64,000 nucleotides of DNA from an uncultured Candidatus Saccharibacteria bacterium (GCA_964442965.1 CAYUBE010000001.1:3301-67300), one strand, 5' to 3'; positions 1 through 62,798 are shown, counted from the stretch's first letter. Notes: generated by a model not told the origin, from the letters alone. Numbers and translations: made by a program.

Positions 1-210
1 GGGTAAGGGTGTCGATTTTATGGAAAACGATTACCTGTGGCATTCAAAACCGTTTAAGCCGGGTGAGGCAAAAAAAGCTCTCCACGAACTCCGAACCTTG
101 CGGGGAAAAATAAACTCAGAACACGAATAAGTAAGACTTAAGAATCATGATTTGGGATTTATGAATAATTTATTCTTGAATCCTGATTCCTGAATCATAA
201 ATCAACCACC

Positions 211-555
211 ATGACTCTCGTCCGCAAAATCTACCTTTATCTTTTTTCCTTAATCGGGCTTGTGCTTGTGGTGATCGGTTGTGTTCAGCTCGTGAATCTC
301 GGTCTCAAGGCATTTATTTTCACTGGTGCGGACCAATATTATGCCTATCCAACCGCGCCGATGGCCGCCGGAACAGAGCCGTCTTCGGCGGTTCCTGCTA
401 GTCCAACAAACGCAGAACTACAGGCATATCAGGATGAACAGACAAAGAGCCAGCGTGAAAGTACCGCTGCGGATGCGCTCGCCATGATCATTGTCGGCGT
501 CCCGCTTTATCTCTATCACTGGTATATGATTAAGAAAGACAAAGAGGCCACATAA
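211..555 (+). CDS. small hypothetical membrane protein (two predicted TM helices)
   Basis: 114-aa ORF with hydrophobic N- and C-terminal segments; no recognisable family. Confidence 0.4.
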   Translation: MTLVRKIYLYLFSLIGLVLVVIGCVQLVNLGLKAFIFTGADQYYAYPTAPMAAGTEPSSAVPASPTNAELQAYQDEQTKSQRESTAADALAMIIVGVPLYLYHWYMIKKDKEAT

Positions 556-580
556 TCATCGATCAGTCGGTTGTTAAAAA

Positions 581-623
581 TTTATTAAATCGGATTTGAC
601 TTCTGTTTTGCGAGTTGTAATAT
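581..623 (+). promoter_or_regulatory. conserved promoter module TTTATTAAATCGGATTTGACTT(-35 TTGACT)-16 nt-TAATAT, copy A
   Basis: near-identical motif at 3245-3266; -35/-10 spacing 16 nt; followed by a terminated short transcript. Confidence 0.5.
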
Positions 624-624
624 T

Positions 625-708
625 GGACTGAAAACGGCATCCATGTCGCCGTGGACGAAAATCTGGTTTGGCGCAAAAATGGCAACCTTGAGTTGCCATT
701 TTTGTTTT
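625..708 (+). ncRNA. candidate ~80-nt small RNA, copy A (5' hairpin, conserved GGAC-GAAAATCT-TGGCG core, intrinsic terminator)
   Basis: promoter immediately upstream; terminator hairpin AAAAATGGCAAC-cttga-GTTGCCATTTTT + T-run at 675-708; homologous copy at 3297-3373. Confidence 0.35.
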
Positions 709-767
709 GCAAGATTTTAGATAGTTTTAATGATCTTTTTATTATACTACCCAAGCTCGTGTATGAT

Positions 768-841
768 GGGGCTGTCGTTCATATAGCTAGGACGCTGTTT
801 TTGCCAAACCGGAAAAGCGGGTGCGAATCCCGTCAGCTCCA
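768..841 (+). tRNA. tRNA-Ala(UGC)-like gene with non-canonical features
   Basis: acceptor GGGGCTG/CAGCTCC with G3:U70 pair, disc A; anticodon loop TTTGCCA (TGC); T-stem GCGGG/CCCGT but T-loop TGCGAAT; D-loop lacks GG; one C-T mismatch in anticodon stem. Confidence 0.5.
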
Positions 842-1287
842 CACGGGCATAAAAATAAAAAAGCCCACTATTTTTTAGGGGGATTGGTCGGCGTGCCGAC
901 TTTCGACTCCTGTTTAGTTTTAAAAGATATTGAGACTGGTATCGGTCTCAAACCTGGGGGCAAAGTCCCTCGTTGAAAGGAAAGGATGGAAACTCTTTCA
1001 TCAAAAGATGAAAGAGGTTAGAATTACTCAAAGGATGGGACCAGCCGAAACCGATCCGTCCTGGGATTTAGAGATAATTCTCACCCCCAGATGTGAAACA
1101 ACTACCTTGACTGAATTTTGATTACAGGTGCTATGTTAGCATATGATAATTTTCTTGTCAAGTACCCTAAAGCAGTCGATTTTGAAGCACTCGGGCAGGC
1201 AGATTTCAAAAAAAAGAGCACACGGTTCTGCCGCTGCAAGAGAGAAAACGAAAACCGCCAGAATAAGTTACGCTAAAACGAAATCCT

Positions 1288-60478: not shown

Positions 60479-60542
60479 TTCTTCCGCGCTTTATTGTATA
60501 GGATTTTTACAAGAAAGCAACGAAACTGAAAAAAGAAAAGAT

Positions 60543-60586
60543 GTCATTTCGGCGAAAGCCGGAATCCAGAAAAACCTGGATCCCGT
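60543..60586 (+). repeat. intergenic repeat family copy (GTCATTTCGGCGAAAGCCGGAATCCAGAAAAACCTGGATCCCG), upstream of peptidase gene
   Basis: inverted partner at 61886-61942. Confidence 0.65.
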
Positions 60587-60682
60587 TTTGCAACGGGATG
60601 ACATAGGAGAGCCGAAATCTAATGATTAAATATATATTAAAGAACATTTTGCGTTCGGATTTTTTCTTGGTAGAACGTATGG

Positions 60683-61822
60683 ATGAAAAACAAAAAATAT
60701 ATTGTCCTGCTTGGCGGGGTTGGTTTGGCGGTGGTAGTTGTGCTGTTTGCAGGTATTGTTCCCGCCGGTCCGGCGGGTGCGGCGTACCGGTTTTCAAATT
60801 TTAAAGGGAAGCCACCGATCCACGTGAGGACTTCCGGCGGGAAATCGCCGTCGGGCATTGCACCGAGCGAGATAAAAAAAGTGTATAACCTGCCTGCGTC
60901 CGGTGGGTCAGGGACCATTGCGATCATTGATGCCTATGACGATGCGACGACCGAAAACGATCTCGCTGTTTTTGATGCTGCTTATGGCCTTGCGGCATGC
61001 ACTTCGAAAAATGGTTGCCTCGAAAAACATCTGATGGCGACTTCCACCAAAACAAACAGCGGCTGGGCGCTTGAAACGTCACTTGATGTCGAATGGGCGC
61101 ATGCCATCGCGCCTCAGGCGAAAATACTTCTCGTTGAGGCAAAAACCGAAAGCGGCGCGAATTTGCTTTCGGCGATTGATTATGCGACGGCACGGAAGGA
61201 TGTCGTCGCGGTTTCGATGAGTTGGGGCGGTGATGAATTCTCGGATGAATTGTCATACGATTCGCACTTTGCGAGCAAGTATGGTGCGGTATTTTTTGCG
61301 TCGTCAGGAGATGGCGGCACGGGCGTAAGCTGGCCGGCGGTTTCGCCGTCGGTCGTCGGTGTCGGTGGCACGTCGCTCGAACTTCTCGCGAATGGGACAC
61401 TTGTTTCGGAATCGGCGTGGTCGGGGAGCGGCGGCGGCGTGAGTGCGTACGAAACCCAACCGGATTATCAGAAAACATATTCCGTGCCAAAAGCGAACGG
61501 CATGCGCGCGGTTCCGGATGTTTCTTATGATGCCGATCCTGCGTCGGGATACGCTGTCTATAAAACAACCGGCTCGTCAAAAAACGGATGGTACACGGTT
61601 GGCGGAACGAGCGCGGGTGCGCCTCAGTGGGCGGCGATTTACGCGCTCGGGCATTCGGCGACGCTTGCTGCCATGTATGGCGACAAGGCATCGTCCAGCA
61701 CGCTCAAATTTTTCCGCGACATAGCGAGCGGCTCAAATGGTACCTGTAAATATTATTGCGATGCAAGAAAACGCTACGATTACGTGACCGGCCTTGGCAG
61801 TCCGCAGACCGTCAATTTCTAA
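60683..61822 (+). CDS. S8/S53-family serine peptidase (sedolisin-like), secreted
   Basis: TIAIIDAYDD, SSGDGG, GGTSAGAPQWAA catalytic-Ser region; signal/TM at N-terminus. Confidence 0.8.
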   Translation: MKNKKYIVLLGGVGLAVVVVLFAGIVPAGPAGAAYRFSNFKGKPPIHVRTSGGKSPSGIAPSEIKKVYNLPASGGSGTIAIIDAYDDATTENDLAVFDAAYGLAACTSKNGCLEKHLMATSTKTNSGWALETSLDVEWAHAIAPQAKILLVEAKTESGANLLSAIDYATARKDVVAVSMSWGGDEFSDELSYDSHFASKYGAVFFASSGDGGTGVSWPAVSPSVVGVGGTSLELLANGTLVSESAWSGSGGGVSAYETQPDYQKTYSVPKANGMRAVPDVSYDADPASGYAVYKTTGSSKNGWYTVGGTSAGAPQWAAIYALGHSATLAAMYGDKASSSTLKFFRDIASGSNGTCKYYCDARKRYDYVTGLGSPQTVNF

Positions 61823-61885
61823 TTTATCTTAGGTGAATTTCCTGCATCTTGGCTCAGGGATGAATGTTTGTCGTCCCGATGAAAA

Positions 61886-61942
61886 TCGGGATCCAGAAAG
61901 TTTGATTTCGGTTCTGGATTCCGGCGTTCGCCGGAATGACAG
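61886..61942 (-). repeat. intergenic repeat family copy in inverted orientation (revcomp = CTGTCATTCCGGCGAACGCCGGAATCCAGAACCGAAATCAAACTTTCTGGATCCCGA)
   Basis: downstream of peptidase gene; forms inverted pair with 60543 copy. Confidence 0.65.
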
Positions 61943-61967
61943 AAGGTAATACGGGGATAGCAATGAG

Positions 61968-62714
61968 ATGTTATGTTACAATGAAGTCATGAAGATTGAA
62001 TGGAACAAGGTGACGTGGTATTCAAAGATCGTCGCACTGATACTTTTCGTCGTATTGCCGTTCATCGGTTTTTGGTTTGGGATCCGGTATGGCGAGATGA
62101 AGCAATATACAGCCGACATTTTGCAGGACGCATCGCAGTCGGTTTCGCCGTCGGCATCAGGGAGTACAAATTCCTATTACGACAATGTCGCCGAATGGCA
62201 AACCGATCAGAACAATAATGGATGGAGCATTGCCTATCCGATAGACTTCGACGCAACAGATCATTATTTGCCTGCGCCGACCGACAATTGGCGGCAGGGG
62301 AATCCGGGCGGTCCCGGGTTACAGCCATTTACATTGGCTATTCCCCGGACGTTCGAGCCGCAGACTAATTTTGCCGAGGCGACGCTCACGGTCGGCGTAA
62401 GCAGTGATACATCGGCGGTCGCGCAATGCTTGGCGATTGAACCGACGGGTCCGCCTAGTCAGTTGCCAACTTCCACCGAGACGTTCAACGGAACTGTCTT
62501 TACGGTCCTTCATTTAAGCGACGCCGGCGCGGGTAATCTCTACGATACGACCAGCTACCGTACGCTCCATGCCGGGCAGTGTTGGGCGGTTGAATACACG
62601 ATCCATTCGTCGGAGATCGGGAACTATCCTCCAGAATACGGTCTTCAGCCATTTGATGCGGCAAAATTACACGATGTCCTTGATCGGATCGTGGGGACGT
62701 TCAAGTTCGAGTGA
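61968..62714 (+). CDS. hypothetical secreted/membrane-anchored protein
   Basis: N-terminal TM/signal, 248 aa. Confidence 0.4.
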   Translation: MLCYNEVMKIEWNKVTWYSKIVALILFVVLPFIGFWFGIRYGEMKQYTADILQDASQSVSPSASGSTNSYYDNVAEWQTDQNNNGWSIAYPIDFDATDHYLPAPTDNWRQGNPGGPGLQPFTLAIPRTFEPQTNFAEATLTVGVSSDTSAVAQCLAIEPTGPPSQLPTSTETFNGTVFTVLHLSDAGAGNLYDTTSYRTLHAGQCWAVEYTIHSSEIGNYPPEYGLQPFDAAKLHDVLDRIVGTFKFE

Positions 62715-62798
62715 AAGATTTAAGATTCAAGACTTAGGATTTGTGAATCGAGAAGAACTTTTTCCTGAATCCTAAACCATGATTCACAAAACTAAAAT

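Follow-up and report, generated by a model that had tools for sequence, protein, structure and literature searches.

Arrays of a self-complementary GAWTC heptanucleotide fill intergenic gaps in a Paceibacteria-type genome and most likely grew in place

The recurrent GAATC/GATTC motif in the window, 64 kb of a Paceibacteria-type (CPR) genome from peat that belongs to an uncultivated Patescibacteria lineage, is a 7-nt repeat unit consisting of GAWTC and two A/T-rich bases, arrayed 5–10 times at each of six sites. The arrays keep a tandem 7-nt period, are restricted to intergenic DNA, fill the spacers from stop to start codon, and are absent or of different length in relatives, and period-7 repeats are over-represented across the clade. 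With one unit dispersed predominantly between genes over many loci, they look like members of the known class of intergenic heptanucleotide repeats (GGGAATC in Xanthomonas, STRR in cyanobacteria, TAACTGA in Beggiatoa). From these 64 kb of one genome and the contigs of relatives, we favor, with a probability of about 55%, the reading that the arrays are lineage-specific heptanucleotide repeats that grew in place and are not sequence-specific regulatory sites, their main consequence being an AU-rich stem-loop.

The sequence-only reading had described the motif family as recurrent, non-random and confined to short intergenic gaps, and the counts bear this out. In the window, GAWTCNNGAWTC has 7 matches against 0.88 expected, a number reached in none of 100 shuffles, and GAWTYNN repeated three times (one mismatch allowed) has 36 matches against 1.92 expected, 33 of them in the six gaps. 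Within arrays there are 49 GAWTC words per kb, compared with 2.8 in the rest of the intergenic DNA and 2.5 in coding sequence. Their spacing peaks at 7, 14 and 21 nt (7, 5 and 4 pairs), and other spacings mostly yield 0–2 pairs, with the exception of 36 nt (4 pairs). Within the arrays, self-identity at lags 7, 14 and 21 is 0.52, 0.49 and 0.44, compared with ~0.25 at other lags, and with 0.27 at lag 7 in the remaining intergenic DNA. Matches, spacing, lag identity and density all place the family far above chance.

The consensus of the 42 units is G (38), A (40), W (37), T (39) and C or T (30 and 11), followed by an A-rich position and a T/A position. The units are degenerate and are not head-to-tail, near-identical copies: the core occurs in 14 variants, GAATC and GATTC are interleaved, and Tandem Repeats Finder picks up only three of the six arrays, with scores of 30–40. 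A scan of public genomes, by contrast, gave single-orientation direct arrays at 104 of 119 loci. Among the degenerate units, T at position 5 is found in 11 cases versus A at position 1 in 3. Except for its central base, the GAWTC core reads the same on both strands, and the arrays are self-complementary because this base alternates between A and T; the adjacent unit pair GAATCATGATTC forms a perfect 12-bp palindrome. It is this unit that recurs, and not separate words: CATG and CAAGA/TCTTG, which the sequence-only reading named alongside GAATC and GATTC, are, like CAGGA/TCCTG, unit junctions (...TC, a 2-nt spacer, GA...).

The first array, S1 (135..205, + strand), lies between the stop codon of a transketolase N-terminal subunit gene (TAA 127–129) and the ATG (211) of a DUF5671 gene, and contains 10 units with a 1-nt phase shift at the central dyad (GACTTAA GAATCAT GATTTGG GATTTAT GAATAAT t TATTCTT GAATCCT GATTCCT GAATCAT AAATCAA). 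S2 (22089..22131, + strand; 6 units, GACTCAA GAATCAT GATTCTT GAGTCTC GATTCCT GAACCAA) overlaps the hisS stop codon (22110–22112) and precedes the HIT ATG at 22139. The perfect 28-bp palindrome reported across this stop is present: AGACTCAAGAATCATGATTCTTGAGTCT at 22089–22116, inside S2, carries the hisS TGA in its 3′ arm and ends 22 nt before the HIT ATG. S3 (24946..24980, – strand; 5 units, GATTTGA AAATCAG GATTCAT GATTTTT GAATTAA) starts inside the TGA of a comF-like gene (24979–24981) and stops 5 nt short of the TG of an extended –10 element, TGTTATAAT (TG 24939–24940, TATAAT 24932–24937), which lies 6 nt before the ATG (24923–24925) of a 155-aa gene. S4 (28486..28556, + strand) has two arms of 4–5 units followed by TATTTTT (GAATCAG GATTTAT GAACCAA GATTCAA ... 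GAGTCTT GGTTCAT GATTCCT GAATCTA), between a 99-aa gene ending the pilM/N cluster (TAA 28479–28481) and the DHFR ATG at 28566. S5 (57281..57315, + strand; 5 units, GGATTTT GATTCAG GAATCTT GAATCAA GATTCTT) separates an RNase H-like gene (stop 57274–57276) from an exonuclease-like gene (ATG 57322). S6 (62717..62787, + strand) comprises two sub-arrays, at 62717–62751 (GATTTAA GATTCAA GACTTAG GATTTGT GAATCGA) and 62767–62787 (GAATCCT AAACCAT GATTCAC), between two genes without assigned function (stop 62712–62714; ATG 62799). Six of the seven sites cited in the sequence-only reading are arrays; the seventh, 45790–45880, is none, with only two isolated GAATC words ~50 nt apart. The same architecture is built from a different unit at 42229..42326 (+ strand), where inverted arrays of ATTAGAA-type heptamers (AATATCT AATTTCT AAT ... 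ATTAGGA ATTAGAT ATTAGAA; period 7, 4.4 copies) fold into a long hairpin over the 114 nt that separate an ABC ATPase gene from an ABC-2 permease gene (the ABC gap).

All six GAWTC arrays lie between same-direction genes and span stop to start. No array begins more than 8 nt from the upstream stop codon, and those at hisS and the comF-like gene overlap it; the downstream start codon follows 5–20 nt after the array end, so that most of the gap is filled. The nearness to start codons noticed earlier is real, but placement relative to the start only is not, and neither phase nor distance to the ATG is fixed among the six sites. The downstream genes have no function in common. SD-like sites are found at 10 of the 71 gene models in the window, and a subset of the genes is apparently leaderless. 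S3 is the only array beside a recognizable promoter, and the start codons downstream of S2, S4 and S5 are preceded by neither an SD site nor a –10 element.

Comparison with relatives showed rapid gain, loss and length change at the S1, S2, S3 and S4 gaps. The hisS–HIT junction lacks the array in five relatives (L009–L012, with HisS 77–88% identical, and L177), in which HisS ends in ...RLK* or ...RLKA* and the genes overlap or are separated by 2–8 nt or by a 63–64-nt gap without array. The left arm of S2, AGACTCAAG, corresponds to the ancestral Arg-Leu-Lys codons of HisS, the right arm is an inverted copy, and HisS in the window is extended by NHDS. One arm of the palindrome is ancestral coding sequence, and array growth is therefore directly visible. 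The transketolase–DUF5671 gap measures 4 nt in L178, contains 3 units in L176 and 10 in the window, and has a different sequence in L177; the L176 units align to the 5′ end of S1, which seems to have expanded internally from a shorter ancestral array. In the S3 slot, L009 and L010 have diverged GAWTC units, and relatives further out have GC-rich hairpins, some followed by a T-run. The S4 slot contains shorter, diverged arrays in L010 and L133 and GC-rich hairpins in L012 and L132. Across the S1, S3 and S4 gaps, the nearest relatives have shorter, diverged GAWTC arrays and the more distant ones have ordinary GC-rich hairpins or gaps of a few bases. The TGnTAnAAT-N6/7-ATG element downstream of S3 is kept in all 16 relatives that have the 155-aa gene.

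The eight other contigs recovered for the species, of which four were aligned over their full length and all were compared at whichever array sites they contain, provide no length polymorphism to compare, with the same sequence at every array and at most 1 base of difference overall. Tandem Repeats Finder, applied to 483 kb (the window and relatives), gave period 7 as the commonest, with 15 of 41 repeats in the window, and with 59 repeats in the relatives compared with 34 of period 6 and 18 of period 8. The period-7 units across this sample are varied (TTCTACA, GAATATG, TGAAAAT and GAGCTAA among many).

All arrays can form an AU-rich hairpin, which follows mostly from the self-complementary unit core. 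The RNA hairpin of S1 has a folding energy of –20.1 kcal/mol, that of S4 –39.6 kcal/mol (z –7.8), that of S5 –18.9 kcal/mol (z –4.7; antisense only –8.0), and that of the ABC gap –34.8 kcal/mol (z –5.7; antisense –20.9); the S6 hairpin is weak (z –0.85). Unit-shuffled arrays fold nearly as well as the originals, and hairpin stability is mostly intrinsic to the units, except for S4, the sole array with a hairpin clearly above its unit-shuffled versions (p about 0.001). At 5 of 7 sites (S1, S3, S4, S5 and the ABC gap), folding is stronger for the sense than for the antisense strand, and two arrays in relatives favor the antisense strand. The sense-strand bias and the position-5 T excess hint at selection on RNA structure. 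A search with the Rfam 15 covariance models gave no match at E ≤ 1 overlapping any array.

These observations indicate that the arrays most likely grew in place. Units would be added in 7-nt steps by replication slippage, a mechanism already suggested for heptameric repeats generally, and inverted units could come from fold-back or template-switch copying, which is favored because the self-complementary GAWTC core lets any two units pair. The main molecular consequence would be an AU-rich stem-loop in the transcript, and a DNA cruciform could also form. The S3 and S4 slots have conventional hairpins in more distant relatives, and S1 and S2 correspond to tight or overlapping junctions in relatives. 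At the ends of the comF-like and pilus gene clusters, the stem-loop may serve as a weak terminator or 3′-end structure replacing an ordinary hairpin, and at hisS–HIT and transketolase–DUF5671 the array may be a tolerated insertion into a formerly tight junction; only some of the sites are plausible weak terminators or RNA-structure elements. Several points count against this reading of the arrays. A GAWTC core common to six loci in 64 kb and to the same three gaps in a second species (L010/L176) is not predicted by independent slippage alone, and may reflect a trans-acting factor or concerted evolution between arrays. The units are degenerate, unlike the near-perfect copies of active simple repeats, the near-identical contigs of the species show no length change, and the sense strand tends to fold better.

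Selection for termination would be one alternative. UAUUUUU after S4, shorter U-runs after S3 and S5, and the GC-rich hairpins, some with T-runs, in the S3 and S4 slots of distant relatives are compatible with intrinsic terminators or attenuators of an AU-rich type. This is nevertheless unlikely: in place of a G+C-rich stem with an immediate U-tract, the stems are AU-rich, and no U-tract directly follows S1, S2 or S6, in agreement with the earlier view that these are not canonical terminators. A terminator scan matched no array except S2, and that on the antisense strand, with lysine codons supplying the T-run. The genome uses ordinary GC-rich terminators elsewhere in the window (e.g. 12072–12107 and 22536–22577), and S1, S2 and the ABC gap lie within gene pairs that are tight in relatives or, for the transporter pair at the ABC gap, form an obvious operon. 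The terminator–promoter module suggested previously fits at most two sites (24946–24980 and 28486–28556, with GC-rich hairpins in distant relatives) and fails at the others. Operators for a DNA-binding protein recognizing 7-bp heptads in either orientation, the other suggestion of the sequence-only reading, would account for contiguous units with a palindromic core in both "orientations", including the GAATCATGATTC palindrome, for a core common to six loci and a second species, and for the position of S3 immediately upstream of a conserved extended –10 promoter, and such heptad arrays are known from ctx (10.1101/2021.05.14.444153). We consider this improbable, because the arrays are not conserved at orthologous junctions (none at hisS–HIT in five relatives; 0, 3 or 10 units at transketolase–DUF5671), only 24946–24980 has a recognizable promoter beside it, the downstream genes are functionally unrelated, and the 7-nt arrays of relatives use quite different heptamers. 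There is also no adjacent candidate regulator, and neither a heptad-binding regulator nor an RHH or methyltransferase domain was found in the window.

An action at the RNA level, with the arrays serving downstream cistron expression in a largely SD-less genome as binding sites for protein S1, Csp or CsrA-like proteins or as internal-initiation structures, is suggested by their ends 5–20 nt before start codons, the scarcity of SD-like sites, the bare starts after S2, S4 and S5, the better folding of the sense strand, and a precedent proposed for TAACTGA repeats just upstream of Beggiatoaceae start codons. It too has a low probability: stop and start codons are brought no closer by the arrays than by shuffled spacers, in relatives the orthologous genes have 2–8-nt gaps and no array, the distance to the ATG is variable, and the arrays of relatives favor the antisense strand. 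Similarly doubtful is a dedicated trans-acting DNA- or RNA-binding factor that recognizes GAWTC heptads and organizes downstream cistrons in this SD-poor, leaderless-using genome. Such a factor would be a multimerizing heptad-binding protein, or an S1/Csp-type factor loading ribosomes on internal starts, and, if real, would explain why a self-complementary core is kept at many loci and in the same gaps of two species. Spread of a small REP/BIME- or MITE-type mobile element by a transposase is very unlikely. The arrays are dispersed, palindromic and intergenic, but the sites have only the 7-nt unit and no element-length consensus in common, and neither terminal repeats nor target duplications can be seen. 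In addition, the left arm of S2 derives from ancestral coding sequence, S1 resembles an internal expansion, and the window contains no RAYT-like gene. Least credible are clusters of GANTC sites acting as epigenetic switches for a CcrM/HinfI-type methyltransferase: every unit core is a GANTC site, but 37 of the 42 units have A or T at the center, the 242 GANTC sites in the window (~250 expected) are neither enriched nor avoided, no methyltransferase is encoded there, and methylation needs no 7-nt period. TIGR arrays (TIGR-Tas RNA-guided systems), which are frequent in CPR, were also considered and rejected. Lying beside a Nop-domain Tas gene, they consist of 36-nt units that combine edge and loop repeats with two variable spacers (PMC12045711), whereas the arrays here have a 7-nt period, no variable spacers and HisS/HIT/DHFR-type neighbors, and no Nop domain was found in the window.

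With growth in place as the preferred reading, this streamlined CPR genome offers a small, clean comparative series, with 0, 3 or 10 units in the same gaps across related species. A self-complementary unit makes hairpins automatically, a reason for caution before any intergenic palindrome is taken for a selected operator or terminator. A heptad-recognizing factor, if true, would bear on internal gene expression in SD-poor, leaderless-rich genomes.

The omega repressor of plasmid pSM19035 works with contiguous 7-bp units, direct or inverted, and the unit number matters. The arrays resemble its operators and the ctxAB heptad operators in their contiguous 7-bp units, but the omega and ctxAB sites are bound by known proteins at defined promoters, whereas most arrays here have no recognizable promoter and their sites are not conserved in relatives. 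Like omega, ToxR/H-NS at the Vibrio cholerae ctx promoter, with its TTTTGAT heptad arrays (10.1101/2021.05.14.444153), serve as a model for the operator reading. Like the arrays, REP/BIME elements are imperfect palindromes scattered between same-direction genes and form hairpins in RNA, but they have a 20–40-nt family consensus and a RAYT transposase, whereas only the 7-nt unit is common here.

Over-representation of heptanucleotide repeats in bacterial intergenic DNA has been known since 2007, and to our knowledge they still have no accepted function or origin. STRR units are direct repeats and not self-complementary, unlike the arrays here. The cyanobacterial STRR heptamers (Calothrix/Nostoc) are genome-specific and dispersed in intergenic regions (PMC4692102), as are the arrays. 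In Beggiatoaceae, arrays of 2–6 TAACTGA units lie a few nt upstream of start codons, and a post-transcriptional regulator was proposed (MacGregor 2015, PMC4679880); the closeness to start codons is similar, but the TAACTGA units are direct, identical copies that cannot form a hairpin. Heptameric repeats are over-represented in bacteria, with polymerase slippage as the proposed cause (Rehm et al. 2015, PMC4692102). In the same study, ~90% of the Xanthomonas GGGAATC arrays are intergenic, mostly between same-direction genes and near the end of the upstream gene; some are paired in inverted orientation and could form stem-loops, and close relatives differ in array length and sequence. The arrays here share with these and with Nostoc GGGGA(T/C)T the 7-nt intergenic repeat, and GAATC is contained in the GGGAATC unit. 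The Xanthomonas and Nostoc heptamers, studied for G-quadruplex formation, are G-rich and repeated directly in near-perfect copies (PMC4692102), whereas the arrays here are A/T-rich and degenerate and, unlike them, span the whole stop-to-start spacer, in a CPR host.

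The sequence-only reading described palindromes of GAATC and GATTC in short intergenic gaps, among them a perfect 28-bp palindrome, AGACTCAAGAATCATGATTCTTGAGTCT, which was confirmed at 22089-22116. Its right arm contains the hisS stop codon (22110-22112), and the HIT gene starts at 22139. When read in register, the sites share a 7-nt unit, a GAWTC core (W = A or T) with two mostly A/T bases after it, in 5-10 copies. The consensus of 42 units cut by hand is G38 A40 W37 T39 C30/T11, with one A-rich and one T/A position after it. The words CATG and CAAGA/TCTTG, also named as components, are present but are not motifs themselves; like CAGGA/TCCTG, they are the junctions (...TC-NN-GA...) between heptamer units.

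Six arrays of this unit are present in the window: S1 (135-205, between the transketolase and DUF5671 genes), S2 (22089-22131, HisS and HIT), S3 (24946-24980, a comF-like gene and a gene for a 155-aa protein, on the minus strand), S4 (28486-28556, a pilus-cluster gene and DHFR), S5 (57281-57315, two RNase H-fold proteins) and S6 (62717-62787, two unknowns). A further cited site, 45790-45880, contains two isolated GAATC words and no array. S1-S6 and a heptamer hairpin with a different unit (42229-42326, between an ABC ATPase and its permease) all lie between same-direction genes and occupy most of the stop-to-start spacer. No common theme was found among the genes flanking these seven spacers. 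Neither the gene for a protein with sigma-70 region 4 and HARE-HTH domains (47199-48233) nor an AbiEii-type toxin gene (45010-45624) adjoins an array.

The motif is enriched well above expectation. GAWTCNNGAWTC occurs 7 times in the window (0.88 expected), and a degenerate three-unit pattern gave 36 matches against 1.9 expected, 33 of them inside the six array gaps. The spacing of GAWTC words has maxima at 7, 14 and 21 nt. Lags of 7, 14 and 21 give self-identities of 0.52, 0.49 and 0.44 within the arrays, compared with about 0.25 at other lags, and no marked lag-7 signal was observed in the remaining intergenic DNA of the window. Per kb, GAWTC occurs 49 times in the arrays, 2.8 times in the rest of the intergenic DNA and 2.5 times in coding DNA; intergenic DNA of the window outside the arrays shows no enrichment of the word.

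The host genome, found in peat metagenomes, belongs to the Patescibacteria/Paceibacteria ('Minisyncoccia'); the peat samples include ERZ27250145 and JGI 3300014161. Relatives were recruited via HisS, PilM, a serine hydrolase and RuvB. Eight other contigs with an identical HIT protein formed the same-species set; the aligned parts of L001-L005 show no more than one base of difference from the window. All eight are identical at every array site covered, with no slippage polymorphism seen. Beyond the species the palindromes are not conserved at the orthologous sites of S1-S4, the arrays being absent, shorter or diverged. At the hisS-HIT junction, the genes are 8 nt apart in L009 (HisS 88% identical), overlap in L011 (81%) and are 2 nt apart in L012 (77%), and the 63-64 nt gaps of L010 and L177 contain no array. 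HisS ends in ...RLK* or ...RLKA* in relatives and in ...RLKNHDS* in the window. The left palindrome arm, AGACTCAAG, consists of the ancestral codons for Arg-Leu-Lys, of which the right arm is an inverted copy; the S2 palindrome was therefore built in place on existing coding sequence.

Turnover is also evident at S1, S3 and S4. The transketolase-DUF5671 gap is 4 nt long in L178 and contains three units in L176 (GATTCAC GAATCAT CATTCAA, aligning to the 5' end of S1) and ten in the window. At the S3 and S4 gaps, the nearest relatives (L009, L010 and L133) contain shorter, diverged GAWTC-like arrays that also fold; relatives further out have either hairpins rich in GC, in some cases with a T-run, or short gaps of quite another kind. 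L010 and L176 belong to a single contig, contig_75231 of ERZ25039519, which means that the GAWTC unit recurs at three shared gaps in a second species. The serine hydrolase neighbouring S5 and S6 has homologues of no more than 66% identity, set among other genes, and the comparison of orthologous gaps therefore covers S1-S4. Some 470 kb of relatives contained no array by a strict GAWTC detector; this proved too narrow, since diverged arrays, and others made of different units, came up when the period-7 search was loosened. The GAWTC arrays are a real, lineage-specific repeat family.

We next consider the hairpins. By z-score, predicted RNA folding is strongest for S4 (MFE -39.6 kcal/mol, z -7.8), followed by S5 (-18.9, z -4.7), S2 (-15.5, z -3.1) and S1 (-20.1, z -2.7), and is weak for S3 (-15.3, z -1.1) and S6 (-16.5, z -0.85). 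Because GAATC and GATTC are mutual reverse complements, any two units are able to pair, and shuffling whole units hardly altered the folding energy, S4 being the exception (p ~0.001), with marginal effects at S3 and S5. Since unit-shuffled arrays fold almost equally well, most of the predicted hairpin potential follows from the unit itself. At five of the seven window sites (S1, S3, S4, S5 and the ABC transporter gap), folding is better on the sense strand than on the antisense. Degenerate units carry T at position 5 in 11 cases and A at position 1 in 3, a pattern that keeps G-U pairs; in two arrays of relatives the antisense folds better. As a sign of RNA function, this modelled sense-strand bias is only suggestive. 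Inverted ATTAGAA-type heptamer arrays give the ABC transporter spacer (42225-42338) a long predicted hairpin, at -34.8 kcal/mol (z -5.7) against -20.9 for the antisense; the architecture is that of the GAWTC arrays.

As for termination, the arrays have AU-rich stems. Downstream of the stem there is a U-tract at S4 and a shorter U-run at S3 and S5; S1, S2 and S6 have neither. A terminator scan flagged only S2 among the arrays, on the antisense strand, and no Rfam family matched any array at gathering or E-value thresholds. A hairpin bringing stop and start codons together for re-initiation is unsupported by the predicted structures, in which the stop-to-start path is not shorter than in shuffled spacers (fractions 0.16-1.0).

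Start signals in the window were also examined. A Shine-Dalgarno-like site was present in 10 of 71 crude gene models, and TANNNT lay 5-8 nt upstream of the start codon in 15 of the 71, with an upstream TG in 11 of these. Examples of an extended -10 element (TGnTAnAAT) 6-7 nt before ATG, with no Shine-Dalgarno site, are at 2421-2440, 24923-24940 (minus strand), 48301-48320, 49693-49714 and 33632-33650 (minus strand). The -10-like elements close to starts and the few Shine-Dalgarno-like sites suggest that a sizeable subset of mRNAs in this Paceibacteria lineage is leaderless. The TGnTAnAAT-N6/7-ATG of the 155-aa gene is kept in 16 of 16 relatives examined, and S3 is the only array adjoining a promoter of this type; neither a -10 element nor a Shine-Dalgarno site was found at S2, S4 or S5. 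A promoter reading of the arrays was also rejected at S3, where TTGAAT words stand 11 nt rather than 17 nt from the -10 element by our own count on the sequences compared at this gap.

Growth in place is the best-supported reading of the arrays. Slippage would add 7-nt units, and fold-back copying (template switch), aided by the self-pairing core, would add inverted ones. The main consequence would be an AU-rich stem-loop in the transcript, which at S3 and S4 may replace a conventional 3' hairpin. The arrays S1 and S2 would be insertions tolerated at gene junctions that relatives keep tight. Growth in place leaves the shared GAWTC core unexplained, and a model in which a factor binds the GAWTC heptads therefore stays alive, favored by the retention of the core at many loci and in two species. 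As a whole we regard factor binding as unlikely; an RNA-level element is an improbable form of it, and a DNA operator slightly more so. The conserved operator for a global regulator proposed from the sequence is not supported. Nor is a mobile REP/MITE element or a cluster of GANTC methylation sites, and TIGR arrays, considered for their CPR link, were rejected.

Several other elements were observed in the window. A separate, REP-like hairpin family, consisting of GTCATTCCGGCGAAAGCCGGAATCC and its variants and in some cases accompanied by a second hairpin, occurs at 20697-20722, 38596-38620, 39411-39436, ~60543-60610 and 61869-61941, and also in L012 and L177; it is probably the first motif family of the sequence-only reading. 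A perfect 42-bp palindrome (AGATAAAAAAAGCACCGCTCT/AGAGCGGTGCTTTTTTTATCT, 22536-22577) at the convergent junction 3' of the HIT gene looks like a bidirectional intrinsic terminator. The region ~3400-9100 (G+C 0.53-0.55 versus 0.47) is a probable integrated element, containing on the minus strand a large serine recombinase (3472-5181), a MerR-domain protein (5405-6556) and a LOOT RNA (8021-8143, 71.8 bits), and on the plus strand a tRNA-like sequence (3513-3586) overlapping the 3' end of the recombinase gene. The tRNA-Ala call at 768-842 is also a weak match to the tmRNA model. Within 768-1287, about 410 nt of non-coding sequence between this tRNA-Ala and ruvB gave no Rfam match and may be an unannotated structured RNA; L176 has similar spacing, with about 390 nt lacking a called gene before ruvB.

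Tandem-repeat periods were surveyed in 483 kb (the window and relatives). Period 7 was the commonest in the window (15 of 41 repeats), and in relatives accounted for 59 repeats, compared with 34, 18 and 50 for periods 6, 8 and 9, a clade-wide excess. The units are diverse, including TTCTACA, GAATATG, GAAAATA, TGAAAAT and GAGCTAA. In the pilM-pilN gap, compared among the window, L132, L133, L134, L170, L153 and L171, several relatives share with the window heptamers immediately 5' of a -10 element. Here the window (26860-26900) and its nearest relatives contain T-rich TTTCACT/TTTTCAC heptamers directly 5' of TATACT-N6-ATG, L153 contains about 8 copies of a GAAAATT type (TRF unit TGAAAAT) and L171 contains TTCTACA x4.6; the presence of an array is kept while its unit changes. 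Near-perfect heptamer repeats also occur in or beside genes of relatives (L156 18317-18348 and 19627-19655; L161 19203-19235; L171 440-471). By hand translation only, TTCTACA x4.6 lies within an apparent prepilin peptidase gene; the apparent start or leader-peptide region of pilin-like genes carries GAATATG x4 or CTAAATC-type repeats. These repeats are candidate phase-variable loci, because gain or loss of one unit would put the gene out of frame.

Four GAWTCNN units were also searched for in 185,579 reference genomes, which gave at least 119 loci in many phyla, versus about 9 expected by our own calculation. Among the matches listed, 104 of 119 are plain heptamer microsatellites in a single orientation, such as GAATCCC and GATTCGG, so the pattern picks up the general heptamer class and, with no control pattern alongside, is not evidence special to GAWTC. 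Heptameric repeats are over-represented in bacteria, and polymerase slippage has been proposed as their cause (PMC4692102). The GGGAATC arrays of Xanthomonas are about 90% intergenic, mostly between same-direction gene pairs, now and then form inverted pairs and differ among close relatives (PMC4692102). In Beggiatoaceae, TAACTGA heptamers lie just 5' of start codons without ribosome-binding sites (PMC4679880). The GAWTC arrays belong to this known class of intergenic heptameric repeats, but differ from it in their self-complementary core and degenerate units.
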